A stretch of 45,439 bases of DNA from IMG/VR virus record IMGVR_UViG_2872678658_000002; one strand, given 5' to 3'. The translations under genes were made by a program, and so were the position numbers. The stretch is from a virus. Taxonomy: Duplodnaviria > Heunggongvirae > Uroviricota > Caudoviricetes. Each line of letters begins with the position of its first letter. Within the stretch, counting starts at the first letter, position 1. Under the pieces are notes generated by a model, which saw only the letters and a list, made by a program, of their open reading frames with translations, did no database searches and was not told where the DNA came from. Positions 842 through 36,306 of the stretch are shown in pieces.

Positions 842-981
842 TATGTTGTCACTCTGGTAGTGCCAGCCTCTCAATATCAGGTGCAGTTGATGTATCAACA
901 CGGTTCAGCAACACCCGATACTTTTTCCAGGCTTCCAGCAACGGGGTTTCTTCCTCCGTTGCATATACAGCTCACCTTTTT

Positions 982-1275: not shown

Positions 1276-1287
1276 TATTTCCTCCTT

Positions 1288-1566
1288 TCAGCTCCATTCC
1301 CGAAGCGGTGTTTCCAGCTCCACGACATAATCAGAGAATACAGAAACATCAAACAAGTCATCAAGAATGCGAATGTTGACAAAATAACCATCATTCCGGA
1401 TACAGACAGGTTCTCCCTCTTCTGTTACCCCTGTTTCTGTGTAGGTGAAACCAATTTCATCAACTAACAGTTTATTCTGGAGGTCTTCATCTTCCGCCCA
1501 GCCAAGAGATGACAGGAAGGCCTTAAACTGCAGTTTGTCATGAAACTTCAAAGTTAAATCTTTCAT
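1288..1566 (-). CDS. small acidic protein translationally coupled to side tail fiber (possible fiber chaperone/accessory)
   Basis: 92-aa ORF; ATGA start/stop overlap with the stf stop codon at 1563-1566; D/E-rich. Confidence 0.45.
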   Translation of the reverse strand: MKDLTLKFHDKLQFKAFLSSLGWAEDEDLQNKLLVDEIGFTYTETGVTEEGEPVCIRNDGYFVNIRILDDLFDVSVFSDYVVELETPLREWS

Positions 1567-3632
1567 ACGACCTCTTTTAATTGCCTGTCATTTAATTCTT
1601 TATGCCATATGCGGAAATTGCGAATATGGCCAAACAGATGTCGTTCTCCAGTATTCGTCTGCCCTCCAAATCGGATATTTTTATCAGCGGTCACGCCATT
1701 ATATTCACAATAAACTTCATTAACCGCTTTACCATTTGTCACCACATGAAAGTGACCATCAGCTTTTGCAATACATCCAAATGTGGTTTTCTCTGCAAAT
1801 ACATCTGTCGCTGCGCTATTAACATACGAGCCTGAAGGGTTTGACAGACTCATATATAACTTACCACTACCTCTGTTGACTGCTGCAATTGCTGATTGCC
1901 CGGTATTGGCTGCTGCTATATCCCACACGCGGGGTGCGGCGTTTGGTGCAATATCCCAGTTTTTATGAATCTCAAGTAAAAAAGTAAATGGTAACTTATA
2001 AAGATTATTTCTGGTGGGGATACTAACCAAATCACTGGCTCTTGTCGTTGCGCTGCCTCCTGAAATAATAAATGATGATACACACGGCCCATTCTCTACT
2101 TGTGGGGTGGCAAGATAAATATAGTCACCAGATACTGTTGCCCCACCCTTCTCAGGAGAATACTGTATCTGAGAGCCTATTTTTAACTCACCATCAATTG
2201 CCTGAATCGTTGCCTCTGCAAAAATCCAGCCCGTGGTCTTATCCTTCCTGACTCGTGCCGTAATTCTGCCGGCAGCACCACCTGTCATATTAATTTCAAG
2301 CGTTTGCGTATCAATGTACGCATCGCCAAGAAAAGTTGTTGCACTTCCGTCATATTTATCAAACCGGATTCGCAACCTTACCTGCAGTTCTGTTTTAAAG
2401 CGACATGAGGTTGTCACGTATTTATTATCGCCTGAGACATCAACTGACTTTGTTGCAGCAATTGATGCCATATTAATAGCCGAAGTTTGCCCAACCAGAG
2501 AATCGTTGCAGACAAACTTTCCATAAGTAAAACCAAAACTATCCGTCCCGGTTTCGGGCACATCCATGTTTGATGACTTCCCCCAGCTGGCTGGACTTTC
2601 CGAATTGAGCATGTAGTTCGTTCTTTGTCCCTCAATAAGCAGGCCATCACACTCAAATCGCGGCTCATTAATTTCCGCCGTTTTCAGTTCGCCAGATTTG
2701 TTGATATATGTTGCCGTTGATGCGCGACTGAAATTAACCTGTTTATCACTGGCGACCTGAACCACATCGTCACCAATAGCTATTTTTTTATAGCCCGGAG
2801 AAAAACCCGCAATCATATCCAGTGAATCGTTAAACGGTATCCACACATCAGGCAGCGGCGGCACTATATTCGCATAGGGCTCTGCAGTCACTTCCGCTGC
2901 GGCTTCTGCGCGGTCTGCCGCCTTTTCAGCTCGTGTCGCTGCCGACAGAGCCTCATCCTTTTTCTGCCCGGCCTTTGTTGCGTCTGCTGCAGCCTCCCGC
3001 GCTTTTGTGGTGGCGACTCCGGCATTTTCAGCGGCTGACTCTGCATTACGGCGGGAAGCCTCTTCACTGTCTGCGGAGGCTTCTTCTGACGCACGGGCAT
3101 TTGTCTCTGAACGTTCTGCCGCTGTTGCTGCGTTTTGTGCGGCTGTTTTTGAAGAAGCTGCCGCTTTCGCGCTGTTACCTGCATTCGTCTCTGATGTTTT
3201 CGCCGCGTTCCTGGACGATGCCGCTGCTGTTTCTGATTTCTTTGCTGCCGCTGCGCTCTGAGAGGCGGCTTCAGCGTTGCGTGCCACATCCTCCACCATT
3301 TCCTGAAAACGGCGCAATGCCTCCGGCATGACATCATCTTCCGTCATGGCACCGAGAAAATCATTCAGCGTCCCCGGACTGGAACCTTCATAGACGGTAA
3401 TGGTCCCAACATGTGATGGCTGAGAACCCTCAATCCACAGGATGACGCTGTACTGACCATACTCAACGTCCATACTGTAACGCCCGGCTTCATCAGGATT
3501 TTCAGAGGCCACCGTGTTCACCAGTACCGTGGTGCTGTTACGCTTTGCCTTCAGTTGAATAGTGCAGTTCTGTATTGGTTTTCCCGCACCATCTTTCAGC
3601 ACACCTGAGATTTTTACTGCTGCCATATCCAC
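1563..3632 (-). CDS. stf: side tail fiber protein (lambda Stf-like N-terminus, divergent C-terminal receptor-binding region)
   Basis: 689 aa; N-terminus MAAVKISGVLKDGAGKPIQNCTIQLKAKRNSTT... matches remembered lambda Stf; Ala/Ser-rich repetitive stalk. Confidence 0.85.
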   Translation of the reverse strand: MDMAAVKISGVLKDGAGKPIQNCTIQLKAKRNSTTVLVNTVASENPDEAGRYSMDVEYGQYSVILWIEGSQPSHVGTITVYEGSSPGTLNDFLGAMTEDDVMPEALRRFQEMVEDVARNAEAASQSAAAAKKSETAAASSRNAAKTSETNAGNSAKAAASSKTAAQNAATAAERSETNARASEEASADSEEASRRNAESAAENAGVATTKAREAAADATKAGQKKDEALSAATRAEKAADRAEAAAEVTAEPYANIVPPLPDVWIPFNDSLDMIAGFSPGYKKIAIGDDVVQVASDKQVNFSRASTATYINKSGELKTAEINEPRFECDGLLIEGQRTNYMLNSESPASWGKSSNMDVPETGTDSFGFTYGKFVCNDSLVGQTSAINMASIAATKSVDVSGDNKYVTTSCRFKTELQVRLRIRFDKYDGSATTFLGDAYIDTQTLEINMTGGAAGRITARVRKDKTTGWIFAEATIQAIDGELKIGSQIQYSPEKGGATVSGDYIYLATPQVENGPCVSSFIISGGSATTRASDLVSIPTRNNLYKLPFTFLLEIHKNWDIAPNAAPRVWDIAAANTGQSAIAAVNRGSGKLYMSLSNPSGSYVNSAATDVFAEKTTFGCIAKADGHFHVVTNGKAVNEVYCEYNGVTADKNIRFGGQTNTGERHLFGHIRNFRIWHKELNDRQLKEVV

Positions 3633-3690
3633 TCCACAAAAAAGCCCGCCTGAACCGGCGGGCTGTCATAACACTGTGTTGCCTGGTTAA

Positions 3691-4290
3691 TCAGAATTTA
3701 TAACCGACACCAACGATGAAACCGTCAGTGCGCCAGTCGCCACTGCCGGAACCTTCATAAGCAATATCAATGGCCACGGATTCGGTCGGGTTAAACTGCA
3801 CGCCAGCCCCCCACGCCAGAGACGTGTCGCTGTAGCGACCGTCATCACTTCCGGTCAGCACATCGTCCGTTTTCCCCTTGTTATCAGTTACGCGGAGATA
3901 ATCCCCGGAGAAAGTCGACACACGGCTGTAAGCCACGCCCGCCATCGCATACGTGCTGAACCATTCATTCACGCGTACAGACGGCCCCGCCATCATGCTG
4001 AACCAGCGGTTACGCACGGAATCTTCATGCCAGCGGGTATCGCTGTAGTGCGTTTTTTGCTCATCCTCAGCATTGGCATAACTGAAGGACGTAATCAGCC
4101 CCAGCGCGTCCGTAAACTCATAACGGTATTTCACGTTAATCCCGTTCAGATTATCGCTGCCGGGAGCGTTCGTACGGGCATGAAGATACCCCGCGCTCAG
4201 TGTGGACTGATGTTCAGACGCCCATGCAGGCGCACCGGATACGGACAGACAGATGGCTGCGGACAAAATGGCTGCACATAATTTACGCAT
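3691..4290 (-). CDS. lom: Lom outer-membrane protein (Ail/Lom family)
   Basis: 199 aa, signal peptide, C-terminal ...GVGYKF beta-barrel terminus; position between J and stf as in lambda. Confidence 0.85.
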   Translation of the reverse strand: MRKLCAAILSAAICLSVSGAPAWASEHQSTLSAGYLHARTNAPGSDNLNGINVKYRYEFTDALGLITSFSYANAEDEQKTHYSDTRWHEDSVRNRWFSMMAGPSVRVNEWFSTYAMAGVAYSRVSTFSGDYLRVTDNKGKTDDVLTGSDDGRYSDTSLAWGAGVQFNPTESVAIDIAYEGSGSGDWRTDGFIVGVGYKF

Positions 4291-4357
4291 AATTACCTCT
4301 CGCTTTTCTGCAATAAAAAAGGCGCCATTTCTGGCGCCCGTATTGGGGTTATAAAAT

Positions 4358-7300
4358 TCAGCTAATCGTGATGCCTGCAGTGGCTTTCTTCATCACAACA
4401 ACCAGCAAATCGCTGATACTTGCTGTGGGATACCAGCCATTTACCCACCATGCTGATACAGAAAACTCCAGCGTCATGTCGCCGCGACCAGCAGGCATAT
4501 CAATAACACCACTGTAAACCAGCGTATTATCCATCGCGGTACGGTTATAAATTTCAGCACCGTTTTTCTTCACTATCAGGCGGCATGACGAATAAGTATC
4601 GCTGTTCTCCCGCTCATGTCTGGCACCGCTGAAAGCCACCGCCGGAATAACAATCTGCCGGTTAAACGGCTGATCGTCATAAACCCTGACGGTAATGGTT
4701 CCTGATGGCCAACGCTTCGGTGCACGGGAGTCACGAGGGAAAGCCTTACCCACTGTTTTAACGAGATCGCCTTCAATCTGGTTTGCAGACAGTTTCCCTC
4801 TGATGACACAGTTCTCGTTAATGGTGACATTATTGAGCGTGCCGGTATTCGCCGTGATGGCTCCACTGATATCCGCATTGCGGGCTGTCAGCCTGCCATC
4901 CGGCGTCAGGGAAAACGTCGGAGGATTGCCGGATGACGTGATGCTCACCGCAAACAGTCGCTTCAGGAACACGTCGTTCATGAACAGCTGATTCCCCTGC
5001 GCCACAAACAGCGGCGTGGTGTTGCCGTTCTCCGGGGTAATCATCGCAATGCGATCGGCCTGCAGCAGAATGTTACTCAGGGTCTGACCATCAACATCCT
5101 CAATCCCCGCACCAATCCCGGCCACATAGGGAATACCGTTTTTTGTTTTCTGCACCTTCAGCATATACATGGCATTCAGCTCATTGCGCGTGTCTGACTG
5201 AACCCGCTGGATTTGCTGTATGGTCACGGCCTGGTCACCCAGCTTTTTATCCGTGGTCGAGGTAATTTCACTCCCTTTTTTATCCACGTACTGGCGGACC
5301 TGTGCTATCTGTCGGGCGTTTTCTGACTGCCCCTGGCTGACAGTCTGTGAGATTTCACTGCTCACCCGGTCCACTTTCTGGCTCACCTGCGCGATGGCCA
5401 GTGTCTGATCCTCATTCTTTTTCGCAACCAGCTGCGTGAGGCTGTTTTCCGCCTTCCCGATTTTCCGGGTCACTTCTGCGATATCCGTGTCCATCCGCTG
5501 ACGGATATCTTCTTCCAGTTGCGTGACCTCCGTACGCAGCGCTGAAGCATCAATGCGCTCTTTCAGTGCCTGACCCAGAAGCGTCTCATCTATCAGCCCC
5601 CGGAAAATTTCCAGATACCCTTCACCATCATTGCTGGGCTGCCCGCTGGCTTCCACAAAAGCAGATTTTCCCACCAGGTTGACGCTTCGCACGTAAAACC
5701 AGAAATCCGTTCCCGGCTTAATCCGGCTCCCCTGGACAGTCCACTGACTGCCGGTCCCCAGATAACGGGCAGATTTTTCCACCTGTGCTGTGTTCGTGAT
5801 GCGTTTTTCTGAGAACCAGAATTCAAACTGTACCGTCGGGTCATACACCGCAAGACGCGGGACCGCCGTTATCTGAAAATACCCCGGCGTCAGCTCAATG
5901 GTGGCGGGTTTTGCAGGTGCGTTAATCCGGAACGATACCGACGCCGGATCGCCCTGCTGTCCCCGGGCATTTACCGCCCGGACCGTCAGCGTGTAACGCC
6001 CCAGCGCCAGCTGCCTGAAGCGGTAAGTGGTTTCCGCCGTCCGGGCCGTGCTGACCAGCCGCTCACTGCCGTCATCCGCTGTTACGGTCAGACGGAGCAG
6101 GAAGCTCACGCCCTTCACCACCTTCGGCGTGTCCCAGCGCGCCAGCACCTGATATTCCCCGCTGTCTGCGGTGACTTCGGCGGTCAGGTGCTGCACCGCT
6201 GGCGGCGTGACACCATTCACCGTGCCGCTCTGGTCGCCGTCAAAGTGCGCTCCGTTATCCACGATGGCCTCTTTTTCCGGTACATGCTGCACGGCGGTGA
6301 TGGCATACGTGCCGTCATCGTTCTCACGGATACTCACGCAGCGGAACAGGCGCTGGCGCAACGTCGGCAGCTTCAGTCCCCATACGCTGTATTCTGCAAC
6401 GCCGTCAGGAACACGGCTCACTTTTACCTTCACGCCGTCGGTGACGGACTGGACCTCCACGCTGACCGGATTCCCCTGTCCGTCAGCCAGGCTTATCAGC
6501 GTGGTGCCGGAGGATGGCAGCGTGATTTCACGGTCGAGCGTCAGTGTCCGCGTCTGGTTGTTCACCGCCAGCACGCGCCCGCCGATGCTGATCCCCGCAT
6601 AGTCATCATCACAGATTTCAATGACATCGCCCGGTACATGGCGAAGCCCTTCTGCACCCACGCTGAAGTCCACGGTCTGCGTTTCCAGCAGCTCCGTTTT
6701 AATCAGCCACAGCCCGGCGCGGTGTGCCTGCCCCCGGCTGGTACAGCCAAAGGCATCCATCTTCGTGACGTTACGACCGTAACGGGCAATGGCCTGCGTG
6801 TCCTCCACAAGCTCTGTCGCCGTCTCCCAGCCGTTATCCGGGTCAATCCAGTTCACCTCAACGGCATTATGGCGGTCTTTCAGGGCGCTGAAGCTGTAGC
6901 GGAACGGCGCGCCATCATCCGGCATCACCACATTACTGCGGTTATAGGTCCACACCTTATCCGACGGTCGGTCCTGCACGAATGTCAGCGTCTGCCCGTT
7001 CCATACCGGCATACAGCGCATCGCCGAGCAAAAATCACTGAGCACATCCCACGCCTTGCGCTGTGTGGTCAGGTACGCATTACAGGTGATGCGCGGCTCC
7101 GTGCCGCCAAAGCCGTCCGGCACTGACTGGTCGCAATTCTGGCCGATGACATACAGCGCCCATTTATCCACATCTGCCGCACCAAGACGTTTCCCCATGC
7201 CGTAGCGCGGATGGGTCAGCATATCCCACAGACACCAGGCCATGTTGTTGCTGTATGCTGGCTTAAACGTTCCGTCCCAGATACCGCTGTATTGCCGCGT

Positions 7301-8056
7301 CTGCGGGTTATAGTTCGACGGCACCTGCAGAATGCGCCCGCGAAGATGATAATTACGGCTCACCTGCTGGCTGCCGAACTGCTCCGAGTCCACCTGTACG
7401 CCGACCAGTGCCGTGTTCGGGTAGCACTGTTTCACATCGATGATTTCGGTGTATGACGACCAGAGCGTTTTGTTCTGCAACTGGTCTGTGGTGCTGTCCG
7501 GCGTCATCCTGCGCATCCGGATATTAAACGGGCGCGGCGGCAGGTTATCCACCACCACCGAGGCCAGATACTGCGACGTGGTTTTGCCCTTAATGGTGAT
7601 GTCTTTTTCCGTCACCCAGCCACCGTTACGTTGAATCTGAACCAGCAGGCGGACTTCCGATGGATTCCTGTCCCCCTTTGAGGTGGTTTCCACCAGTGCC
7701 TGCACGCCGAAAGTAAAACGCAGACGGTCAATGTTTGCCGACGTGATGGTCCGGGTGATCGGCGTGTCATATTTCACTTCTGTACCGAGCACCGTCTCGG
7801 AGCCGGAGGATTCAAATCCCTCCGGCGGTGTCTGCTCCTGCTCACCGGCCCGGAACACCACCGTGACGCCGAATATATTGGTATTCCCCTCACTGTCCAG
7901 CACCGGCGTACTGTTCAGCAGCACGCTTTTTAATCCATCCACCGGACCTTCAACCGGCCCTTCGCTGATGGCGTCTATCACGCTCAGCATCTGGGATGAT
8001 TTCAGGTTGTCCTTCGCTTCGCGCGGGGTATGCCCCTTACTGCTGCCTTTACCCAT
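4358..8056 (-). CDS. J: tail tip/host specificity protein J
   Basis: 1232 aa beginning [20 protein letters not shown], long identity to remembered lambda J over most of the length, divergent extreme C-terminus. Confidence 0.95.
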
Positions 8057-8116
8057 TCCTCATGCTCCATAAACGATAAAACCGCCCGGAGGCGGTTTCA
8101 CATAAAACATTTTGCA

Positions 8117-8788
8117 TCAGCGACCAATCACCACAACCTGACCACCATCCCCTTCGTCTGCCGTGCTGATCTCCTGAGAAACCACGCGTGACCCCACGCG
8201 CATTTCACCGTACAGAACCGGCAGAACATTGCCCTGGGCAACCATGTTATCCAGTGAGGAGAAATAGGTGTTCTGTTTGCCGTTATCCGTTGTCTGTGTA
8301 CGGGGAGTTCTGGCTTTCGGTGCCAGCATCTGCGCCACACCACCGAGCACCATACTGGCACCGAGAGAAAACAGGATGCCGGTCATACCACCGGCCCCAA
8401 TGGCTGCCCCCCATGCTGCAAGGGTGGCTCCGGCGGTAAAGAATGATCCGGCAATGGCGGCAGCCCCCAGGACAATCTGGAATACGCCACCTGACTTGGC
8501 CCCGGCGACTCTGGGAACAATATGAATCACAGCGCCATCAGGCAGAGTCTCATGTAACTGCGCCGTTAACCCGGACGTGCTGACGTCCCGCCCGGCAATC
8601 CGTACCTGATACCAGCCGTCGCTCAGTTTCTGACGAAACGCCGGGAGCTGTGTGGCCAGCGCCCGAATGGCTTCAGCCCCCGTTTTCACACGAAGGTCGA
8701 TGCGGCGGCCAAATCGTTGTAAATCCCCGTAAAGGCAGATGCGCGCCATGCCCGGTGACGCCAGAGGGAGTGTGTGCGTCGCTGCCAT
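8117..8788 (-). CDS. I: tail assembly protein I
   Basis: 223 aa, lambda I-like sequence, overlaps K 3-prime end as in lambda. Confidence 0.9.
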   Translation of the reverse strand: MAATHTLPLASPGMARICLYGDLQRFGRRIDLRVKTGAEAIRALATQLPAFRQKLSDGWYQVRIAGRDVSTSGLTAQLHETLPDGAVIHIVPRVAGAKSGGVFQIVLGAAAIAGSFFTAGATLAAWGAAIGAGGMTGILFSLGASMVLGGVAQMLAPKARTPRTQTTDNGKQNTYFSSLDNMVAQGNVLPVLYGEMRVGSRVVSQEISTADEGDGGQVVVIGR

Positions 8789-9429
8789 TTGTCGGTATAC
8801 CTCTCTCGTTTGCTCAGTTGTTCAGGAATATGGTGCAGCAGCTCGCCATCACCACAGTAAATGGCGGCATGATTCGGCACCGATGAACCAAAACAGCACA
8901 GCAGCACATCGCCCGGTTGTGCTGATGACAACGGCACCTGATACAGCCCTGTGGCCTCCAGATTATCCAGATAGAGATTCTGATCGTGACGCCACCAGTC
9001 ATCCTCGCGATGAAAATCCGGCATCTCAATCCCCGCCAGATGATAAGCATCCCGGAACAGCGTGTAACAGTCCGTCACCCCGTGCTCAAAGCGCCGCCCG
9101 GTGAGATGCGGCACACAGCGGAACTTATGAATCGCCCCCCGGCAGACCAGCAACCACGGCAAATCACTCTGCACCTGCAGCCGCCGGTCAGCCTCACTCA
9201 GCCAGGGCAGACCACCGGGGTGGCTGTGGACCAGCGCCACAATCTCACCCTGCATTTCTGCCTGCAGCCAGTCCTCCGGAGCCATCCGGAAATACGCCTC
9301 CGGCTCACCGGAGATATTCACGCAGGGAAAATATCTTTCCCCCTCCGGCGCTCTCACCACGAAGCCGCACGACTCCGCTGGCGCACATCGCCGGGCGTGC
9401 GCCAGAATCGCTGATTCTGTCTCTGTCAT
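8686..9429 (-). CDS. K: tail assembly protein K (NlpC/P60 + JAB-like)
   Basis: ORF 8686-9471; lambda K-like sequence begins at internal Met (MTETESAILAHARR), so start placed at 9429. Confidence 0.85.
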   Translation of the reverse strand: MTETESAILAHARRCAPAESCGFVVRAPEGERYFPCVNISGEPEAYFRMAPEDWLQAEMQGEIVALVHSHPGGLPWLSEADRRLQVQSDLPWLLVCRGAIHKFRCVPHLTGRRFEHGVTDCYTLFRDAYHLAGIEMPDFHREDDWWRHDQNLYLDNLEATGLYQVPLSSAQPGDVLLCCFGSSVPNHAAIYCGDGELLHHIPEQLSKRERYTDKWQRRTHSLWRHRAWRASAFTGIYNDLAAASTFV

Positions 9430-9433
9430 GGGA

Positions 9434-10132
9434 TTACTGCGAAAGTTTGTTAATGGAAAGGAAGCCGCCAAAGTTGCCGACGTTATTGCGGAACTTACAA
9501 CCGCTCAGGCATTTGCTGCATTTATCCTTCGTGATATCGGACGTTGGCTGGTCATATTCATCCGCGACCGCCGGACCGTGATAACCGCACTCATCGCCGC
9601 GATAGGTCCAGGTGCAGGTGTTGGCCAGCATGATACGTCCCGGAAAAACAGCGCCGTCCGTTTCCGTCGGCGTGGACAGTACAAAGGAGGCACTGACCGC
9701 GCTCAGTTCGCTGCACTGCTCAATGCGCCAGCGGCTGATCACCTCCTGCTCCGGATCGGCGTCTCTGTTTCCGTTGACGAAGTTCACCGCATCCAGAAAA
9801 CGGGCGTAAACCTTACGCCTGACCACCGTTCCGCCGACCAGACTCTGCAGATCTTCCGCCATCCCGGTGACCATGCCGTACAGGTTAGAAACCGTCAGCG
9901 TGGGGCGCGTACTGGTGCCTTTGCCATTCAGTTCAAAACCACTCCCCTGAATGGGATACGCCTGATACTGCCGCCCCTGCCAGGTGACCGGCTCACCTTT
10001 TTCGTTCTGCTCATTACAGAAAAAATAACGTTCTCCACCGACCTCTGTCAGATCGATTTCCCAGAGCACCACGCTGGCCGACTGCTCCGCACGGGTGCAT
10101 TCATTCAATGTTTCCTGCCGGATATCCTGCAT
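9434..10132 (-). CDS. L: minor tail protein L
   Basis: 232 aa, MQDIRQETLNECTRAEQSASVVLWEIDL... lambda L-like. Confidence 0.9.
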   Translation of the reverse strand: MQDIRQETLNECTRAEQSASVVLWEIDLTEVGGERYFFCNEQNEKGEPVTWQGRQYQAYPIQGSGFELNGKGTSTRPTLTVSNLYGMVTGMAEDLQSLVGGTVVRRKVYARFLDAVNFVNGNRDADPEQEVISRWRIEQCSELSAVSASFVLSTPTETDGAVFPGRIMLANTCTWTYRGDECGYHGPAVADEYDQPTSDITKDKCSKCLSGCKFRNNVGNFGGFLSINKLSQ

Positions 10133-10461
10133 CAGTTCACCACCTGTTCAAACTCTGCGCTGAACTCAACACGCAGCATACTGACCCGCGACGACCATTT
10201 TGCGCAGGTCACCTTTATCTGCCTGTAACCATAAGGCGGCGTCCACAGAAAGGCCTTCCAGCCCCCGTGCTCAGCCAGAAACGACTCCAGCGCCGTGGCC
10301 TCCTCACGGGAGACAGACAGCGTCACGCTGTACGTTTTCAGGTCAGCGTTCAGCCCGGCAGGCGCACGCTGGGAATAGCCATCACCAAAGCGCACCTCCC
10401 TGACGGAAGGAGCCGATGTCACATCCATCCCGGGTTTCACTTTCCAGCGGAAGGTTTTCAT
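10132..10461 (-). CDS. M: minor tail protein M
   Basis: 109 aa, lambda M-like, 1-nt overlap with L. Confidence 0.9.
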   Translation of the reverse strand: MKTFRWKVKPGMDVTSAPSVREVRFGDGYSQRAPAGLNADLKTYSVTLSVSREEATALESFLAEHGGWKAFLWTPPYGYRQIKVTCAKWSSRVSMLRVEFSAEFEQVVN

Positions 10462-13019
10462 CGTCCACCTCCGGAGAACAGACCACCATCGCGCATCTGT
10501 GCCTGGATTTCATCACGGGCACCCTTGCGGGCCATGTCATACACCGCCTTCATCATCTGTGGACCTGGCAGACCATTCGTACCGTCGTTCTGAATCACCA
10601 CGTTGTTGTTCTGCTCAAACCTGATACCCTCTGAACGCCGCATTTGCGCCGGACTTCCGGTGCCACCGACATAACCGCCGGTGGCATAGCCGCGCATCAG
10701 CCGGTAGAGATTTCCCACGCCAATCCGGCTGGTTGCCTCCTTCGTGAAGACAAATTCACCACGGTGAACAATCCCCGCTGGCTCATATTTGCCGCCGGTT
10801 CCCGTAAATCCTCCGGTTGCAAAATGGAATTTCGCCGCAGCGGCCTGAATGGCTGTACCGCCTGACGCGGATGCGCCGCCACCAACAGCCCCGCCAATGG
10901 CGCTGCCGATACTCCCGACAATCCCCACCATTGCCTGCTTAAGCAGAATTTCTGTCATCATGGACAGCACGGAACGGGTGAAGCTGCGCCAGTTCTGCTC
11001 ACTGCCGGTCAGCATCGCCGCCATATTCTGTGCAATACCATCAAAGGTCTGCGTGGCTGCACTTTTTACCTGCGACATACTGTCCGTGGCGCTCTCTTCC
11101 CACTCACTCCAGCCGGACTTCAGGCCTGCCATCCAGTTCCCGCGAAGCTGGTCTTCAGCCGCCCAGGTCTTTTTCTGCTCTGACATGACGTTATTCAGCG
11201 CCAGCGGATTATCGCCATACTGTTCCTTCAGGCGCTGTTCCGTGGCTTCCCGTTCTGCCTGCCGGTCAGTCAGCCCCCGGCTTTTCGCATCAATGGCGGC
11301 CCGTTTTGCCCGTTGCTGCTGTGCGAATTTATCCGCCTGCTGCGCCAGCGCGTTCAGGCGCTCCTGATACGTAACCTTGTCGCCAAGTGCAGCCAGCTGG
11401 CGTTTGTACTCCAGCGTCTCATCTTTATGCGCCAGCAGGGATTTCTCCTGTGCAGACAGCTGGCGACGTTGCGCCGCCTCCTCCAGTACCGCGAACTGAC
11501 TCTCCGCCTTCCACAAATCCCGGCGCTGCTGGCTGATTTTCTCATTTGCTCCGGCATGCTTCTCCAGCGTCCGGAGTTCAGCCTGAAGCGTCAGCAGGGC
11601 AGCATGAGCACTGTCTTCCTGACGATCGCCCGCAGACACCTTCACGCCGGACTGTTTCGGCTTTTTCAGCGTCGCTTCATAATCCTTTTTCGCCGCCGCC
11701 ATCAGCGTGTTGTAATCTGCCTGCAGGATTTTCCCGTCTTTCAGTGCCTTGTTCAGTTCTTCCTGACGGGCGGTATATTTCTCCAGCGGTGTCTGCAGCC
11801 GTTCGTAAGCCTTCTGCGCCTCTTCGGTATATTTCAGCCGTGATGCTTCGGTATCGCTCTGCTGCTGCGCATTTTTGTCCTGTTGACTCTGCTGTTCAGC
11901 CTTCTTTCGGGCGGCTTCAAGCGCAAGACGGGCCTTTTCACGATCATCCCAGTAACGCGCCCGCGCTTCATCGTTAACAAAATAATCATCCTTGCGCAGA
12001 TTCCAGATGTCGTCCGCTTTCTTAAACGCAGCCTCTGCCTTAATCAGCATCTCCTGAGCGGTATCAGGACGACCAATATCCAGCACCGCATCCCACATGG
12101 ATTTGAATGCCCGTGCTGTCCTGTCTGCCCAGGTTTCCAGCGTGCCCATGTTCTCTTTCAGGCGTCGGGTCTGGTCATCAAACCCTTTCGTTGCGGCCTC
12201 GTTCGCCGCCTGCAATGCCCCGGATTCATCGCCGGAACGCTGCAACTGAGCAACATACGCAATCTGCTCCGCCGTTACGTTATGGAACTGGCGCGCCATC
12301 GCCGTCAGCCCCGACGTCGGGTCAGTGGTCAGCTTCCCGAAGGCTTCAGCGACCTTGTCCACCTCCACGCCGGATGCAGAGGAGAAACGCGCCACACTCT
12401 GGCTGATGGATGCAATCTGAGCCTCACCGCTTACTCCCGCCTTAACCAGTGCGCTGAGTGACTCGCTGGTCTGGTTAAACGTCAGCCCTGCCGCCTGCCC
12501 GGCTCTGGACAGGACCAGCATACGATCTGCCGTCAGACCCGACTGATTGCCGGAAAGGACCAGCGTTTTGTTGAAATCGGACAGGGTTGAGTTACCCTGA
12601 TACCAGGCATACGCCAGCGCACCGGTCGCCACCGCCAGCGAGGTGGCCCCGACCATCGGCAGGGTGATCGCACCGGCAAGCCCCCGGAACATGGGGATCA
12701 TCCCGCCGAAGGAGTCCTTAACCTGACCACCCTGTTGCAGCAGGATCAGCCACGGGCTTTGCCCGCCTGCAAGCTGCGTGGCCACGTCGGTGAACTGTGC
12801 AGGCAGCATACGCATGGCGGCTTTATACTGCCCGACGGAAATCCCCGCTTTCTGTGCAGCCAGCGCCTGTCGGCTCAGCGACTGTTCAACGACTGCCGCT
12901 GTTTTTTTCGCATCACTTTCCGTACCGGAAAAATGACGCCTGACTCTGGCCATCTGCTCGTCAAATCTGGCCGCATCCAGACTTAAATCAACGACCAGAT
13001 CGCCTACCGGTTCAGCCAT
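10458..13019 (-). CDS. H: tail tape measure protein H
   Basis: 853 aa, coiled-coil-rich, lambda H-like; position between T and M. Confidence 0.9.
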   Translation of the reverse strand: MAEPVGDLVVDLSLDAARFDEQMARVRRHFSGTESDAKKTAAVVEQSLSRQALAAQKAGISVGQYKAAMRMLPAQFTDVATQLAGGQSPWLILLQQGGQVKDSFGGMIPMFRGLAGAITLPMVGATSLAVATGALAYAWYQGNSTLSDFNKTLVLSGNQSGLTADRMLVLSRAGQAAGLTFNQTSESLSALVKAGVSGEAQIASISQSVARFSSASGVEVDKVAEAFGKLTTDPTSGLTAMARQFHNVTAEQIAYVAQLQRSGDESGALQAANEAATKGFDDQTRRLKENMGTLETWADRTARAFKSMWDAVLDIGRPDTAQEMLIKAEAAFKKADDIWNLRKDDYFVNDEARARYWDDREKARLALEAARKKAEQQSQQDKNAQQQSDTEASRLKYTEEAQKAYERLQTPLEKYTARQEELNKALKDGKILQADYNTLMAAAKKDYEATLKKPKQSGVKVSAGDRQEDSAHAALLTLQAELRTLEKHAGANEKISQQRRDLWKAESQFAVLEEAAQRRQLSAQEKSLLAHKDETLEYKRQLAALGDKVTYQERLNALAQQADKFAQQQRAKRAAIDAKSRGLTDRQAEREATEQRLKEQYGDNPLALNNVMSEQKKTWAAEDQLRGNWMAGLKSGWSEWEESATDSMSQVKSAATQTFDGIAQNMAAMLTGSEQNWRSFTRSVLSMMTEILLKQAMVGIVGSIGSAIGGAVGGGASASGGTAIQAAAAKFHFATGGFTGTGGKYEPAGIVHRGEFVFTKEATSRIGVGNLYRLMRGYATGGYVGGTGSPAQMRRSEGIRFEQNNNVVIQNDGTNGLPGPQMMKAVYDMARKGARDEIQAQMRDGGLFSGGGR

Positions 13020-13446
13020 ACCGGACTCCTCCTGCGATCCCTTCTGATACTGTCATCAGCATTACGTCATCCTCCGTCATGCCCGCCATATCCGGGGAAG
13101 CGGGGATAACTTCATTTCCGTCCGGGTCAAAGCGGACGCCTCCGGTAAGCCCTGCCGCTTTCTGCATCAGCACATCATCTTCAGGCTCTTCGTCATCCTC
13201 ACGCCGGTTCAGCAAACTGAAATCCAGCGGATGCATATCCGGATCGCTGAAAAACAGGCTGAGCACAGTGTACGTCAGCCCGGAAAAGTGCATATCCAGC
13301 AGAACATCATGAAAATAATGGGTACTGTAAAAGCGGTGCCAGTCGGCATACTCCGTGGATGACATCCCGGCAAGCATGGCGCGCCAGTCAGGTCGCCCCA
13401 TCTCTCGCGCCAGTTTCAGGGCAAAACTCAGCTCACCGTCGAACAC
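13012..13446 (-). CDS. T: tail assembly chaperone T region, expressed as G-T fusion by -1 frameshift
   Basis: 144-aa -1 frame ORF overlapping the end of G; slippery heptamer present. Confidence 0.85.
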   Translation of the reverse strand: MFDGELSFALKLAREMGRPDWRAMLAGMSSTEYADWHRFYSTHYFHDVLLDMHFSGLTYTVLSLFFSDPDMHPLDFSLLNRREDDEEPEDDVLMQKAAGLTGGVRFDPDGNEVIPASPDMAGMTEDDVMLMTVSEGIAGGVRYG

Positions 13447-13850
13447 TTTCCCGCAGAAACAGGCTCTGCAGGCCCGGAGTCCTCTGCCTGGTCAGGGGCA
13501 TCATTCACCACAAACCCATACATACCGGACAGCCGGTACACCACGTTTTCAGCATGAGAAATTGCCTCCGCGGGCCAGGTGGTAAGCACTTCCTGCTCAA
13601 TCTGTTTAACGGCTTCATTCATGGAAGGCTGCTTTGTCTTCTGCGGATGGTTATGCCACAGGGACATCGCCACCACAAAAGCACCGGTTCTGATGGCGTC
13701 TTCCACAGTAACCTGCCGGTTGCTGTCTGACTCCGCCTGTTCTGCCTGCTGTTTCATCAGGGCGAGATGCTCAATACGCTGCAGGGCTGACAGTTCAGAA
13801 AGCGTGACGGTCACGCCGTTATGTTCAAATGATTCGGTTTTCAGGAACAT
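13428..13850 (-). CDS. G: tail assembly chaperone G
   Basis: 140 aa, lambda G-like. Confidence 0.9.
   Translation of the reverse strand: MFLKTESFEHNGVTVTLSELSALQRIEHLALMKQQAEQAESDSNRQVTVEDAIRTGAFVVAMSLWHNHPQKTKQPSMNEAVKQIEQEVLTTWPAEAISHAENVVYRLSGMYGFVVNDAPDQAEDSGPAEPVSAGKCSTVS
13446..13452 (-). other. G-T programmed -1 ribosomal frameshift slippery site GGGAAAG
   Basis: plus strand reads ctttccc (reverse complement GGGAAAG) 8 codons before the G stop. Confidence 0.85.
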
Positions 13851-13865
13851 CGCTGACTCTCCGGA

Positions 13866-14606
13866 TTAACTGTCGGTGACAGTGATTTCTGCAACCGCAG
13901 CAAGTTCACCATTACCGGATACAACCGGAATGTTGACCTTGCCTGCAGCAACGCCGTTCACTGTGATGGTCATACCACTGACCGACACGGTGGCTTTTGT
14001 TTTATCCGCTGACACCGCACGGAAGCTCTTGTCAGTTGCGCCCTCCGGCTGGAAGGCCACGGTCAGCGTGGTGCTCTGCCCTTTCACCACCGAGGAGCTG
14101 GCAGGCGTCACGGTCATACCGGTTGCCGCCGTCACCGTACTGCGATCTTCTGCCATTGACGGACGGCCCACATTGGTGACCTTCACCGTACGGGTGATCA
14201 CTTCCTTCGCCGTCACCGCCTTACCGATACTGCTGACCCAGCCACGGAACACATCGACCGTGCCGTTCGGGAAGCGGATTTTATAGGCACGGGTATCACC
14301 TTCATTAAACCACGCCAGCAGCGCCTGCTGCCCCTGCTCTCCGGGCATCCACGCCAGCGTGAAGCTGGTATCTCCGGCGGATTTCTGCCCCTGCCCGGTC
14401 GCGGTCCAGTCCGCATCTTCATCATCGAGATAGCTGTCATCATAGGACTCAGCGGTCAGTTCGCCGGGCGTCAGGTCTTTAACTTTTGCCAGACGCGACC
14501 AGTCAACGTCTGAAAGCGGGTTCGCATAAGGGTCGCCGCTCCCGTTATAAACCCACAGGGTGGTTCCGGCACCTTTCACCGGTATTGCTGGATTTGGTAC
14601 AGGCAT
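13866..14606 (-). CDS. V: major tail protein V (with C-terminal Ig-like domain)
   Basis: ORF extends to 14636, but lambda V-like sequence starts [16 protein letters not shown] at the internal Met. Confidence 0.9.
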
Positions 14607-14613
14607 ATCGTCC

Positions 14614-15009
14614 TCACATTTCATAGGTAATGACATACGTCAGATCGGCAGAACTCCACAGGCCCGCATCATCGTCGCGCCGGTAGTCATAGCCGCTGGC
14701 CACCATACTGGTGATCAAATCTGACAGTGCCGGGATATCGCTCATCACCGGATAAATCCGGGACTCCATCCACGAATCCAGCTCTGAATCCGGCACCTGA
14801 GCAGGCAGGAAAACTTCAATATGCAGCTCCGCCTGCCAGGTATCGCTGTCCAGCTCTTCGCCCGTGTATTCAGCGCCGGTGAGATAAACGGCAATTGCCG
14901 GAAAATCTTCCTCATCAAAAACAGCGGGGCGACCATCAAAAAGCGTCGCCCCGGTGTCATGCTTCTCCAGTGCATCCAGTACGGCTGCACGGAGTTCAGT
15001 ATGTTTCAT
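14614..15009 (-). CDS. U: tail terminator protein U
   Basis: 131 aa, [37 protein letters not shown] lambda U-like. Confidence 0.9.
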
Positions 15010-15584
15010 CGCTTTATTACCATTCTCAGTTGATGCTGCAGCGCATAGCCCAGCTCTTTCGGAAGACGCTCACGCCGTATCCGCTCAATATTCTGTTTAA
15101 ACGCCGTGGTCAGCGGCACCGCCATCGGGATTTTCACCACATCAATGGGGTAACGGTTTTTCCCGGCCACACGCTGCATGACATGCCACCGGCCATTTTT
15201 CAGTTGCTGAATAAACGCGCCGGGAATACGACGGTTTCCCACCACAAGCACGCTGCCGCCACCTTTCAGGGATGAACGCTGCCCCTTTTTACGACGCCTG
15301 CGGCGGGACAGGACAACCCGCGCATTACCCAGCTTGATTACGGGCAAATCCCCCCGGTTAACCCTGATTCTGGCCTGCGGATTTTTGACCGTGGCCCTTT
15401 TCAGCCTGGCCCTTTCCTTTACCAGTTTCCGGCGTACCTTTGTCTCACGGGCAACCTGTGACGCAGACTGCGATATCGCGGATGAAGCAACGCGGTTAAT
15501 GGCCATTGCGGCGGCACCGGGCACCGCCGTTTTGCTGATACGGCTGAGGTTTTCAACGGCCTGCTCAAGACCTTTTATGGCCAT
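15006..15584 (-). CDS. Z: tail completion protein Z
   Basis: 192 aa lambda Z-like, 4-nt overlap with U. Confidence 0.9.
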   Translation of the reverse strand: MAIKGLEQAVENLSRISKTAVPGAAAMAINRVASSAISQSASQVARETKVRRKLVKERARLKRATVKNPQARIRVNRGDLPVIKLGNARVVLSRRRRRKKGQRSSLKGGGSVLVVGNRRIPGAFIQQLKNGRWHVMQRVAGKNRYPIDVVKIPMAVPLTTAFKQNIERIRRERLPKELGYALQHQLRMVIKR

Positions 15585-28047: not shown

Positions 28048-28725
28048 ATGTCCATCATTTTTAATGGACACTATCGTATGAAACACCGGACCTGGATCAC
28101 TGAAGCTTTACGTCTTCACTTTGAAGAACATTTACCCCGGGTTGTGGCCGGGCGTCGCCTGGGTGTACCAAAATCAACAGTTTGTAGTATGTTCGTGCGC
28201 TTTCGGAGAGCTGGCCTTTCGTGGCCTTTGCCCGCAGGCATGTCGGAGCAGGAACTTGATGCCTGCCTTTACGGACAATTTTCCACGGTACCAGTCGTAC
28301 GTCCTGAAAGCACCGTTATATCCGAAGCCCCCGTGGTAAAAAAACGTCCCCGGCGGCCCAACTTCCCTTATGAGTTTAAAATCGCCTTAGTGGAGCAGTC
28401 ACTGCAGCCCGGAGCCTGTGTGGCGCAGATCGCCCGGGAAAACGGAATCAACGATAACCTGCTCTTCAACTGGCGCCATCAATACCGGAAAGGTGGCCTG
28501 CTGCCTTCCGGAAAAAATATGCCGGCACTGCTTCCCGTGACGTTAACGCCGGAGCCGGATAATAAAATCCCGGCCCCCGCACAGGAACCAGAGCAGATAA
28601 ATACACCGTCCGACAGTCTGTGTTGTGAGCTGGTTCTGCCGGCCGGAACTCTCAGGCTTAAAGGTAAACTGACGCCGGCGTTATTACAGACACTTATCCG
28701 CGAAATAAAAGGGAGCAGCCACTGA
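28048..28725 (+). CDS. tnpA: IS66-family accessory protein TnpA (HTH)
   Basis: 225-aa ORF, HTH-like segments; first of three IS66-type ORFs. Confidence 0.7.
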   Translation: MSIIFNGHYRMKHRTWITEALRLHFEEHLPRVVAGRRLGVPKSTVCSMFVRFRRAGLSWPLPAGMSEQELDACLYGQFSTVPVVRPESTVISEAPVVKKRPRRPNFPYEFKIALVEQSLQPGACVAQIARENGINDNLLFNWRHQYRKGGLLPSGKNMPALLPVTLTPEPDNKIPAPAQEPEQINTPSDSLCCELVLPAGTLRLKGKLTPALLQTLIREIKGSSH

Positions 28726-29072
28726 TGATATCTCTCCCTGCAGGTTCGCGTATCTGGCTGGTTGCAGGTATCACCGATATGCGAAATGGCTTTAACGGCC
28801 TGGCATCAAAAGTTCAGAACGTCCTGAAGGATGACCCGTTCTCCGGACACCTGTTCATCTTCCGCGGACGCCGGGGTGACCAGATAAAAGTGTTGTGGGC
28901 TGACAGTGACGGACTGTGCCTCTTCACCAAACGCCTGGAGCGGGGCCGCTTCGTCTGGCCAGTCACCCGTGACGGCAAGGTGCACCTTACTCCGGCTCAG
29001 TTATCCATGCTTCTTGAAGGTATCAACTGGAAGCACCCGAAACGAACGGAACGCGCTGGAATCCGCATATAA
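28725..29072 (+). CDS. tnpB: IS66-family protein TnpB (orfB)
   Basis: 115 aa, typical IS66 orfB size and sequence, start overlapping tnpA stop. Confidence 0.85.
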   Translation: MISLPAGSRIWLVAGITDMRNGFNGLASKVQNVLKDDPFSGHLFIFRGRRGDQIKVLWADSDGLCLFTKRLERGRFVWPVTRDGKVHLTPAQLSMLLEGINWKHPKRTERAGIRI

Positions 29073-29091
29073 CCCGTTGTAAAGTGAGGAT

Positions 29092-30663
29092 ATGGACACC
29101 TCACTTGCTCATGAGAACGCCCGCCTGCGGGCACTGTTGCAGACGCAACAGGACACCATCCGCCAGATGGCTGAATACAACCGCCTGCTCTCACAGCGGG
29201 TGGCGGCTTATGCTTCCGAAATCAACCGGCTGAAGGCGCTGGTTGCGAAACTGCAACGTATGCAGTTCGGTAAAAGCTCAGAAAAACTTCGTGCAAAAAC
29301 CGAACGGCAGATACAGGAAGCACAGGAGCGAATCAGCGCACTTCAGGAAGAAATGGCGGAAACGCTGGGTGAGCAATATGACCCGGTACTGCCATCCGCC
29401 CTGCGCCAGTCTTCAGCCCGTAAACCGTTACCGGCCTCACTTCCCCGTGAAACCCGGGTTATCCGGCCGGAAGAGGAATGCTGTCCTGCCTGTGGTGGTG
29501 AACTCAGTTCTCTGGGATGTGATGTGTCAGAGCAACTGGAGCTTATCAGCAGCGCCTTTAAGGTTATCGAAACACAACGTCCGAAACAGGCCTGTTGCCG
29601 GTGCGACCATATCGTGCAGGCACCAGTACCTTCAAAACCCATTGCACGCAGTTATGCCGGAGCGGGGCTTCTGGCCCATGTTGTCACCGGGAAATATGCA
29701 GACCATCTGCCGTTATACCGCCAGTCAGAAATATACCGTCGTCAGGGAGTGGAGATGAGCCGCGCCACGCTGGGGCGCTGGACCAGTGCTGTTGCTGAAC
29801 TGCTGGAGCCGCTGTATGACGTCCTGCGCCAGTATGTGCTGATGCCCGGTAAAGTCCATGCTGATGATATCCCCGTCCCGGTCCAGGAGCCGGGCAGCGG
29901 TAAAACCCGGACAGCCCGGCTGTGGGTCTACGTCCGTGATGACCGTAACGCCGGTTCACAGATGCCCCCGGCGGTCTGGTTCGCGTACAGTCCGGACCGG
30001 AAGGGTATCCATCCTCAAAATCACCTGGCCGGTTACAGCGGTGTGCTTCAGGCCGATGCTTACGGTGGTTACCGGGCGTTATACGAATCCGGCAGAATAA
30101 CGGAAGCCGCGTGTATGGCTCATGCCCGGAGAAAAATCCACGATGTGCATGCAAGAGCGCCCACCTACATCACCACGGAAGCCCTGCAGCGTATCGGTGA
30201 ACTGTATGCCATCGAGGCAGAGGTCCGGGGCTGTTCAGCAGAACAGCGTCTGGCGGCAAGAAAAGCCAGAGCCGCGCCACTGATGCAGTCACTGTATGAC
30301 TGGATACAGCAACAGATGAAAACACTGTCGCGTCACTCAGATACGGCAAAAGCGTTCGCATACCTGCTGAAACAGTGGGATGCACTGAACGTGTACTGCA
30401 GTAATGGCTGGGTGGAAATCGACAACAACATCGCAGAGAACGCCTTACGGGGAGTGGCCGTAGGCCGGAAAAACTGGATGTTCGCGGGTTCCGACAGCGG
30501 TGGTGAACATGCGGCGGTGTTGTACTCGCTGATCGGCACATGCCGTCTGAACAATGTGGAGCCAGAAAAGTGGCTGCGTTACGTCATTGAACATATCCAG
30601 GACTGGCCGGCAAACCGGGTACGCGATCTGTTGCCCTGGAAAGTTGATCTGAGCTCTCAGTAA
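29092..30663 (+). CDS. tnpC: IS66-family transposase TnpC
   Basis: 523 aa, N-terminal coiled coil/leucine zipper, Cys-rich zinc ribbon, DDE-like core. Confidence 0.85.
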
Positions 30664-31158: not shown

Positions 31159-31234
31159 TGGTGGCCCTTGCTGGATTTGAACCAGCGACCTGGCGATTAT
31201 GAGTCGCTCGCTCTCACCACTGAGCTAAAGGGCC
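31159..31234 (-). tRNA. tRNA-Ile2-like (anticodon CAU, ileX/ileZ type)
   Basis: 76 nt, anticodon loop ACUCAUAA; body far closer to remembered ileX than to elongator tRNA-Met. Confidence 0.75.
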
Positions 31235-34112: not shown

Positions 34113-34505
34113 CTACTGCCCTGTTTTAACGAAGTTTTTAAAGGAAACAACTGCCTGATAGGGGTTTGGTTGACAGCCAAACATATTATCGCAAAAAGGC
34201 TTGATGAAAATTCTTGAGGATCCATCTTCATTTGGCATTTTACTCACTTGATAAGCGAGGAATGGACTATTTGGAGAGGGATTATAAGTGGAAATTAGCG
34301 TGTCTGTCGCCGTTTGAATTTTCCATGAGGAATTATTAGCCAACCAGAATTGCGCTCGTTTCCAATAAAAGTCACATTGCTTTTCATCATTACATGTTAG
34401 TGGCTTCATTGCTTCTGCTTTCAACGCTGGATCGATCTTTGCTGCACACCCTCCCAACATTACTGTTGCAATCATTACACCTGCGACTAAAACAAGTTTC
34501 TTCAT
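34113..34505 (-). CDS. predicted lipoprotein (moron)
   Basis: 130 aa, signal peptide with lipobox LGGC, six further Cys; AT-rich codon usage. Confidence 0.6.
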   Translation of the reverse strand: MKKLVLVAGVMIATVMLGGCAAKIDPALKAEAMKPLTCNDEKQCDFYWKRAQFWLANNSSWKIQTATDTLISTYNPSPNSPFLAYQVSKMPNEDGSSRIFIKPFCDNMFGCQPNPYQAVVSFKNFVKTGQ

Positions 34506-34648
34506 CTCCCTGCCCCATCAATAAAAGTTCGGTTCTCTAATAACTAGAGTTAATCAACGGAAAAAACGCCGAAGCGGGTTAAGTGCGGGTGCGTTGAGGA
34601 TGCCTGACACATCAGAGGTGGCGAGGGATTTCTCCCCCGCCAGGTCTC

Positions 34649-34804
34649 TTACTCCTCAGGTTCGTAAGCTGTGAAGACAGCGACCTCCGTCTGGCCGGTT
34701 CGGATTCGTACCTCGCAGAGGTCTTTCCTCGTTACCAGTGCCGTCACAATGACGGTTAAACAGATGACGATCAGGGCGATTAACATCGCCTTTTGCTGCT
34801 TCAT
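34649..34804 (-). CDS. hok: Hok/Gef-family membrane toxin (HokD-like)
   Basis: 51 aa MKQQKAMLIALIVICLTVIVTALVTRKDLCEVRIRTGQTEVAVFTAYEPEE; ORF has in-frame upstream extension to 34861. Confidence 0.85.
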   Translation of the reverse strand: MKQQKAMLIALIVICLTVIVTALVTRKDLCEVRIRTGQTEVAVFTAYEPEE

Positions 34805-35040
34805 AGCCTGCTTCTCCTTGCCTTTCGGCACGTAAGAGGCTAACCTAGATTTGCCGTTCATAGATTGAGCCTCAGATTAATGTTAAGCGTCTTGCAGGAC
34901 GCGTAATGTTAACTGGGGCTTTTCTCTATCTGCCTTTGGTGTTCATGCCTGAGACAGATAGCCTCAAGCACCCGCAGCCATTCTACTTAACTCCCGTTAC
35001 CTCGCCAATATAAAATCAATCAGAAAGGTGATCCATAAAA

Positions 35041-35727
35041 TCACTCCTTCTCTTCTTTTCCGTAGTGGAGTTGGCCAATTTTGATAAGAGGGCGTCCCTG
35101 AGATTTGCGGTGTAGATTGGTATCGCGCAGAGAATACACACAGCCACAATATTCCTGCTGATAGAATTTTTCGCGCTTGCTGATTTCAATCATACGGGAC
35201 GAGCCGCCCTGCTTGCGCCAGTTATAATCCCAGTACACCATACCCGGATAATGCGCAACAGCTCGCCGCCCACACTCGTTAACCTGCTGCATATTTTTCC
35301 AGCGTGAAATGCCCAGTGAACTGCTGATCACACTGAAACCATTTTCAGCAGCGTACAACGCTGTCCGCTCAAAACGCATGTCAAAACACATGGTACAACG
35401 GATCCCCCTCTCAGGCTCCCATTCCATTCCTTTGGCACGTTCAAACCAGTTGTCGGTGTCGTAATCAGCATCGATAAACGGCACGCCGTGTTGTTCAGCA
35501 AAGCGAATATTTTCATCCTTACGAATTAAATACTCTTTCTGAGGATGAATGTTCGGGTTGTAGAAAAAGATGGTGTAGTCGATTCCCGAGGCCTGAAGCG
35601 CCTCCATCACTTCACCGGAACATGGAGCACAGCAAGAGTGCAGTAGTAGTTTGTTTGCCCCGTTTGGGAGCTCCAATTTAGGCCGTTTGAAATCAGCAAT
35701 AGTCATAAATATTTTTATTGGGGTCAT
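35041..35727 (-). CDS. DUF208/QueH-like protein (putative epoxyqueuosine reductase, Fe-S)
   Basis: 228 aa with [11 protein letters not shown] motif plus CTMCF and YCGC cysteines characteristic of QueH family. Confidence 0.65.
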
Positions 35728-35880
35728 GAAAATAGCACAGAGTGTAGCATCAGAGCAGGGCTATCGGGAATATATGTCTAAATCTGGTAATATCTGGTTT
35801 TGACGCAAAGCGGACAACCACGCTGGCTCTACCCTGCGCCATGAAAATGTCAATTCACATCTGAACTAATGCTCTTTAAT

Positions 35881-36306
35881 CTAGTAACGTCTAAAATACC
35901 TAACATTTCCTTGATAAAATGCCAGTACACGCTGCATAGCTTCGCTCTTCCGGCACTCGCGACAGATTATGTTCTGACGCCTGTCGTAGCGACGTATTTC
36001 TCCGTCAGGTAATGACCAGATAAGGTCCGGATCAACCGCAGATGGTTTCTTCAGCTTTGCCCTTGAGAGCTTTTTACGGGCATTTTGCCAGTCCTTACGC
36101 GCCTGTTCAGACGGGAATAACCCGTAACCAGAGTTGTATACATCGCCGCTGGCAACCAGCTCTCTTGCGAGAACGCTCATCAGATATCTTGTCGCACCTG
36201 TCTTGACTTCCAGTTGCCGTAACGTCTCACGCCCACTCTGGCGTACGAGTTCAAAAACCTGTCCTTTAATTTTTTCCCGCTCTTCTTGTGTAAAAACTTT
36301 TGCCAC
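35881..36306 (-). CDS. hypothetical protein downstream of replication initiator
   Basis: 141-aa ORF, basic C-terminal half with CxxC. Confidence 0.4.
   Translation of the reverse strand: MAKVFTQEEREKIKGQVFELVRQSGRETLRQLEVKTGATRYLMSVLARELVASGDVYNSGYGLFPSEQARKDWQNARKKLSRAKLKKPSAVDPDLIWSLPDGEIRRYDRRQNIICRECRKSEAMQRVLAFYQGNVRYFRRY

Follow-up and report, generated by a model that had tools for sequence, protein, structure and literature searches.

A predicted QueH-type epoxyqueuosine reductase gene behaves as a compact cargo cassette in lambdoid prophages of Escherichia coli

The tRNAs that receive queuosine (Q) are those for Asp, Asn, His and Tyr, which have GUN anticodons. E. coli does not synthesize cobalamin de novo and has to import or salvage this vitamin. 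According to a passage in PMC4646009, which cites Frey 1988, the step from epoxyqueuosine (oQ) to Q is cobalamin-dependent in E. coli and is carried out by QueG, a cobalamin/[4Fe-4S] enzyme. A passage in PMC5372724 describes QueH as a non-orthologous replacement of QueG. Genomes often contain a cobamide-dependent enzyme together with an alternative that does not need the cofactor, as reported in an analysis that had QueH outside its scope (PMC6461909). With respect to viruses, a large survey of 7-deazaguanine genes listed no homologue of QueA, QueG or QueH among those that it covered (Hutinet et al. 2019, PMC6884629). The 7-deazaguanine genes of phages (DpdA with FolE, QueD, QueE and QueC) resemble the gene described here in being phage-borne queuosine-pathway genes. 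However, those systems modify phage DNA and act upstream of preQ0/preQ1, whereas the present element has only the terminal enzyme, acting at the level of tRNA, and no transglycosylase. A second point of comparison is the 'moron' cargo of lambdoid phages, which includes hok/sok and with which the present gene shares the compact single-gene cassette with sharp homology edges, the slot between the replication genes and the antiterminator gene Q, and the shuffling among backbones. That cargo otherwise consists of genes for toxins, exclusion or virulence, whereas the present gene would contribute a tRNA-modification enzyme of the housekeeping kind; its independent transcription is putative.

The gene, queH, lies within the window, which is the whole stretch of 45,439 nucleotides of viral DNA that was analysed (Table 1). 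An earlier note on this DNA had drawn attention to a 228-aa open reading frame (35041..35727, minus strand) with an HSCCAPCS signature and extra cysteine pairs, and had assigned its product to the QueH/DUF208 proteins. Both the motifs and the assignment were recovered in our analysis. The cysteine motifs of the product are H30-S-C32-C33-A-P-C36-S, C111-x-x-C114 and C194-x-C196, and the protein matched Pfam PF02677 QueH (formerly DUF208, IPR003828) with 221.5 bits against a gathering cut-off of 23.5 (E = 1.1e-65), residues 27-201 being aligned to profile positions 1-174 of 175. This match is far above chance level, and QueH was the sole Pfam family found for the 228-aa protein at E < 0.01. Residues 27-203 were also aligned with chain residues 4-178 of the Thermotoga maritima QueH crystal structure 7LC5 (E = 7.8e-22), the structures matched for this enzyme being 7LC5, 7LC7 and 9DEU. 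The start codon had to be corrected. In the allele of a Rac-like prophage the first ATG of the 228-aa frame is an ATT; the second ATG (35706) and its context are invariant. Since the upstream ATG is not conserved and RefSeq starts the protein at the second one, the true start is probably at 35706, which gives a product of 221 aa.

Table 1. Positions of queH and of neighbouring features in the window.
Feature	Position	Strand	Description	Evidence
hokD-type toxin gene	34649..34804	-	51 aa; maximal ORF to 34861, 70 aa	Pfam HOK_GEF; RefSeq hokD at equivalent coordinates
hok mRNA leader / sok antisense region	34799..34973	-		Rfam RF01794 sok, full model, E 5e-25
Promoter-like site TTGGCG-17-TAGAAT	34980..35008	-	downstream of the queH stop codon	consensus scan
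Minimal queH cassette	35037..35755	-	ORF plus about 50 nt upstream, common to all backbones compared	blastn
queH coding sequence	35041..35706	-	221 aa; maximal ORF to 35727, 228 aa	Pfam QueH, 7LC5, RefSeq WP_000150294.1
Candidate extended -10 element TGcTACACT	35741..35749	-	inside the invariant block upstream of queH	allele conservation
DUF977 / Ren-like gene	35881..36306	-	final replication-module gene, normally next upstream of queH	Pfam DUF977, 102 bits; phrog_142

The exact protein is present in RefSeq as WP_000150294.1, "epoxyqueuosine reductase QueH", at the equivalent coordinates of a 99.93%-identical prophage of E. coli APEC IMT5155. As our search against the NCBIfam profiles returned no model at E values up to 0.01, this name must rest on a type of evidence other than an NCBIfam HMM of the present release. 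Because the family, its chemistry and the name of the exact protein are all public, QueH is filed here as known, and its identification adds nothing new.

Like QueH of T. maritima, with which it shows homology over the full length, the queH product has the QueH domain with a CC pair, a CxxC and a CxC motif, and it is predicted to convert oQ34 to Q34 on tRNA without cobalamin. The two proteins differ in that their sequence similarity is only remote, in that the present copy is prophage-borne and its host has QueG as well, and in that Asp13 of T. maritima QueH takes the position of Cys36. Which residue binds which metal is reportedly set out in a QueH structure paper of 2021. To define the conserved cysteines, we compared four prophage or phage alleles, three chromosomal orthologues and four QueH proteins at 32-50% identity; short "Bacteriophage sp." scaffolds of faecal origin, which are unverified and unannotated, served only as divergent QueH sequences. 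All seven motif cysteines (C32, C33, C36, C111, C114, C194 and C196) were kept in every prophage allele and relative compared, and the eighth cysteine, C152, was the sole variable one. At the position of Asp13, all other QueH proteins sampled have a Cys, even at 32-50% identity. Cys36 thus represents the usual state and is no argument against membership. Judged by these sequence features, the protein is very probably a functional QueH, and we regard it as a typical representative of a known enzyme family, found where it has received little notice.

A near-full-length match to the K-12 queG gene was found in each of the 5426 complete E. coli genomes, which means that every queH-positive strain has two unrelated genes for one step. 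This agrees with the earlier statement that E. coli uses the unrelated QueG, and it makes the prophage queH a second, non-homologous oQ reductase gene. The reaction and the substrate of the two enzymes are expected to be identical, and both genes are present in every queH-positive genome. Nonetheless, the enzymes are unrelated in fold and in cofactors, and queG is core (5426/5426) whereas queH is accessory, its sequence being present in 995 of the 5426 genomes (about 18%), almost always on the chromosome. At least 80% of the gene is covered in 985 of these 995 copies, and RefSeq labels the copies in complete E. coli genomes "epoxyqueuosine reductase QueH". None of the genes for TGT/DpdA, queC, queD, queE, queF and folE appears in the RefSeq annotation of the prophage (99.93% identical in the early, lysis and head region, and 96-97% in the tail region). 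Any QueH activity would thus act on epoxyqueuosine made by the Tgt and QueA enzymes of the host.

From position 15302 to its end, the window matches the prophage of IMT5155, which is integrated next to a tRNA-Ser gene and mtfA. Positions 1..15301 (the tail region) are only 96-97% identical to IMT5155, and positions 1..905 have no match to the sitABCD-adjacent sequence of that strain, which indicates that the window comes from a different strain with a recombinant version of the prophage. On the minus strand, a cro-like gene, YdaT, the replication initiator (phrog_3729), DUF977 (Ren-like), queH, hokD, a gene for a 130-aa lipoprotein, DUF968, RusA, Q and four tRNA genes follow one another, and these are succeeded by an IS66 element and the lysis, head and tail genes. 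The position in the nin region that had been claimed for queH is thereby borne out, since the slot between the replication module (DUF977 and initiator) and DUF968/RusA/Q is the equivalent of the nin region of lambda.

Several features of these surroundings deserve separate mention. The gene at 35881..36306 is a "Ren-like exclusion protein" according to PHROGs (phrog_142) and only a "DUF977 family protein" according to RefSeq. The IS66-family element (28048..30663; tnpA, tnpB and tnpC) lies between the lysis cassette and the tRNA cluster. In the prophage of IMT5155, the genes for the Q antiterminator and the integrase carry a frameshift label in RefSeq, and IS66 is inserted as well; this prophage may be defective despite its intact queH. 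The 130-aa frame at 34113..34505 (minus strand) has a lipoprotein-type signal (…LGGC) and a GC content of 0.40, and its searches gave no Pfam, NCBIfam or PADLOC match and, among the PHROGs, only phrog_16082 (unknown function). Since it occurs in only 7 of 80 queH-bearing IMG/VR loci (the best 80 of 190), it can be seen as another variable cargo gene of the queH slot.

The same protein recurs widely. In a large protein collection the exact sequence was found on at least 1000 contigs, and its 90% cluster includes entries from Shigella, Enterobacter and Klebsiella. Relatives of queH are present on 190 viral contigs of IMG/VR, and the best 80 of these 190 encode a 100% identical protein. The isolated temperate phage HannyBb is the sole curated phage genome with queH (95% aa identity), which is annotated there as hypothetical. 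Matches with 78% identity in "Acinetobacter phage MD-2021a" were rejected as instances of phage carriage, these being bacterial chromosome contigs labelled as phage. The record concerned (CAKLQH020000001.1, 328 kb) has soxR, a gntR-family regulator, transporters and tadA around its QueH homologue, which is annotated as 'putative prophage protein', and it is apparently a bacterial contig under a wrong label.

At least three lambdoid backbones carry queH, namely the prophage of the window, a Qin-like prophage (L007) with the markers cspB, ydfT, ydfU, rem and hokD, and a Rac-like prophage (L008) that adjoins trkG and has racR and ydaS/T/U/V. The edges of the cassette were defined by blastn of the window against these two prophages and phage HannyBb (L009). 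Homology to the Rac-like prophage is confined to 35037..35755, and homology to the Qin-like prophage and HannyBb covers 35035..35822. Of the best 80 among the 190 IMG/VR loci, 67 have the end of DUF977 at 175 nt upstream of queH, and 53 have a hok block that begins 3 nt downstream of it; the genes for replication and for the lipoprotein are variable. Judging from these alignments, queH behaves as a compact cargo cassette in a mosaic slot. In the Qin-like prophage and in HannyBb, a truncated gene for a DNA methyltransferase (6768..6953 in L007 and 7762..7968 in L009) is situated between DUF977 and queH, and its end shares homology with positions 35756..35822 of the window. Of this gene, only a remnant seems to be left in the window, upstream of queH.

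As had been claimed, hok is next to queH: a hok/sok system lies directly downstream, with a match of 81.6 bits to Pfam HOK_GEF (PF01848) on the frame 34649..34861 and of 110 bits to Rfam RF01794 sok, against a gathering score of 59. The idea that queH and hok form a unit, on the other hand, found no support in the comparison of backbones. The hok homology block (34561..35038, blastn) is apart from that of queH and contains a promoter-like site of its own, TTGGCG-17-TAGAAT, the -10 hexamer of which ends 7 nt ahead of the first RF01794 match position and which is probably the hok promoter; moreover, queH has no hok neighbour in the Rac-like prophage. On the basis of these alignments, hok is a neighbouring but separate module. 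Since no terminator was found between them, co-transcription of queH and hok by read-through is possible, but neither gene needs it.

The closest relatives outside E. coli, with 79-86% aa identity, are the QueH proteins of Erwinia, Gibbsiella, Photorhabdus, Providencia, Proteus and related genera, which are equal in length to the prophage protein and share its motifs. They differ from it in setting, as in the genomes examined they belong to core chromosomal neighbourhoods whereas the E. coli copies are found in lambdoid prophages. An Erwinia-like genome has the chromosomal order purL-queH-glrK, the Providencia gene lies among tmcA, purC, bamC and dapA, and that of Photorhabdus is in a non-phage region. 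Since these relatives occupy core chromosomal settings, the prophage gene looks like a captured bacterial housekeeping gene. Its GC content is 0.48, which is not distinct from that of the neighbouring genes. The upstream regions of the chromosomal orthologues could not be aligned with that of the prophage queH, and capture together with the native promoter is not demonstrable from this comparison. Prophage alleles from different backbones had dS values of 0.29-0.46 and dN values of 0.013-0.023, and thus dN/dS ratios of 0.042-0.053 (Nei-Gojobori). Such ratios argue for strong purifying selection on the prophage queH across backbones.

We consider it reasonably probable (roughly 0.6) that the locus encodes a functional, cobalamin-independent QueH that was captured from a chromosome elsewhere in the Enterobacterales and is now compact cargo among E. 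coli prophages. A lambdoid phage would have taken up queH from such a chromosome, and the cassette would since have moved among E. coli prophages at a position just downstream of the replication module. In the cell, epoxyqueuosine would be made by the host enzymes Tgt and QueA at position 34 of the tRNAs for Asp, Asn, His and Tyr, and QueH, with a [4Fe-4S] cluster and an adjacent iron, would reduce the epoxide to yield queuosine. The last step of Q formation would then be freed from the B12 supply, and QueH and QueG would form a backup pair comparable to MetE/MetH. Within this proposal, the assignment to the family, the conservation of the ligand cysteines, the action of purifying selection, the movement between backbones and the joint occurrence with queG are established, and added to them are a predicted enzymatic activity, a putative expression in lysogens from an extended -10-like element, and B12 independence as a presumed selective benefit. 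The B12-independent formation of Q34 that was suggested earlier stands as the most economical reading, the activity itself being predicted. That this is the role for which the gene is selected in the lysogen falls a little short of even odds. We know of no growth phenotype of oQ versus Q, and the benefit of B12 independence is for this reason a presumed one.

The alternative that fares best is that queH is an auxiliary gene of the lytic cycle, transcribed only in the early-right operon after induction, which would top up the Q34 of the host and do nothing for the lysogen. With the replication genes on one side and Q on the other, the gene has the orientation of the early-right genes, and it should for that reason be transcribed after induction. 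A scan with strict sigma-70 -35/-10 consensus sequences revealed no promoter upstream of queH, a terminator scan revealed no terminator-like site on either side, and a free, isolated temperate phage (HannyBb) carries the gene, all of which would fit such a role. However, the 14-nt block CTCTGATGCTACAC upstream of queH is invariant in the four prophage/phage alleles while its flanks diverge, and it is kept even in the Rac-like allele, whose homology ends just upstream of it. A candidate extended -10 element lies inside this block (Table 1); taken alone, this motif is weak evidence, as a chance match to its five fixed bases is expected in roughly one out of seven regions of this kind. The conservation of the block at the very edge of the cassette is no more than suggestive of a promoter belonging to queH itself. 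Furthermore, queH has remained intact in IMT5155 in spite of the frameshifts in Q and the integrase gene and the IS66 insertion, the gene is under strong purifying selection across backbones, and we know of no way in which oQ and Q differ in decoding and from which phage translation could profit. A purely lytic role is thus rather unlikely in our view. Returning to a function in the lysogen, we put forward, as a tentative proposal held with less than even confidence, that queH is a lysogenic-conversion gene, which from its own conserved extended -10 promoter would provide about one fifth of E. coli strains with fully matured Q when cobalamin is scarce, while queH-negative strains would stay at oQ.

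It is less probable still that queH is a passenger without a selected function, which entered by illegitimate recombination and then hitch-hiked with successful prophages. Such a history would accord with the presence of queG in every host genome and with a mosaic slot in which other cargo, such as the methyltransferase remnant, the lipoprotein gene and hok, is variable. It is difficult to reconcile with a dN/dS of about 0.04-0.05 at a dS of up to 0.46, with the near-full-length state of 985 of the 995 copies, with the retention of every ligand cysteine and with the movement of the cassette between at least three backbones.

The earlier note had further connected queH with the tRNA cluster of the prophage, a connection that our data do not support. 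The tRNAs encoded there are Gly-UCC, Thr-UGU, Lys-UUU and a tRNA with the anticodon CAU, none of which is a queuosine substrate. The cluster lies 3.8 kb from queH, beyond Q and in a different module, and no tRNA genes are annotated in the 12.7 kb examined of the queH-positive Qin-like prophage. As regards the CAU tRNA (31159..31234, minus strand), ARAGORN assigns it to Met and RefSeq to Ile (a lysidine-type AUA reader). The suggestion of defence or counter-defence fared no better: the PADLOC models gave no match for queH, hok, the 130-aa lipoprotein, DUF977 or the replication protein, and the element has no 7-deazaguanine or TGT/DpdA genes. A tRNA-directed defence or counter-defence role, or a non-tRNA substrate such as 7-deazaguanine-modified DNA, possibly in conjunction with hok or the prophage tRNAs, is therefore highly improbable, even though phages use 7-deazaguanine chemistry on their own DNA (PMC6884629) and hok is adjacent in 53 of the best 80 of 190 loci, as DpdA/TGT, queC, queD, queE and folE are missing from the element, PADLOC recognizes neither queH nor its neighbours, the prophage tRNAs are not Q substrates, queH also occurs without hok and without tRNA genes in the stretch examined, and an identity of 79-86% to housekeeping QueH leaves little room for a new specificity.

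Our literature search, which did not extend to the QueH discovery paper, returned no publication on a prophage QueH in E. coli. Thus, what is undocumented in the searchable literature is the occurrence of a terminal queuosine enzyme on temperate phages, in about 18% of complete E. coli genomes, all of which also have QueG. If the enzyme is active in lysogens, the wobble modification of four tRNAs would differ in a strain- and vitamin-dependent manner, and the list of prophage auxiliary genes would gain a tRNA-modification enzyme. A strain-dependent Q state, if true, would bear on work on translation fidelity and on the supply of queuine to animal hosts. Were lysogenic conversion to be true, QueH would be the first tRNA-level queuosine enzyme shown as phage cargo, and APEC, ST131 and O157:H7 isolates would be among the Q-producing strains, with queH-negative strains such as K-12 at oQ.

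A last observation concerns annotation. The PHROGs family that matches QueH, phrog_3217, is labelled as having unknown function. Its profile begins at residue 34 of the queH protein and so lacks the N-terminal CCAPC motif, which suggests truncated gene calls in phage genomes. Moving the QueH annotation onto phrog_3217 would be a simple practical gain.
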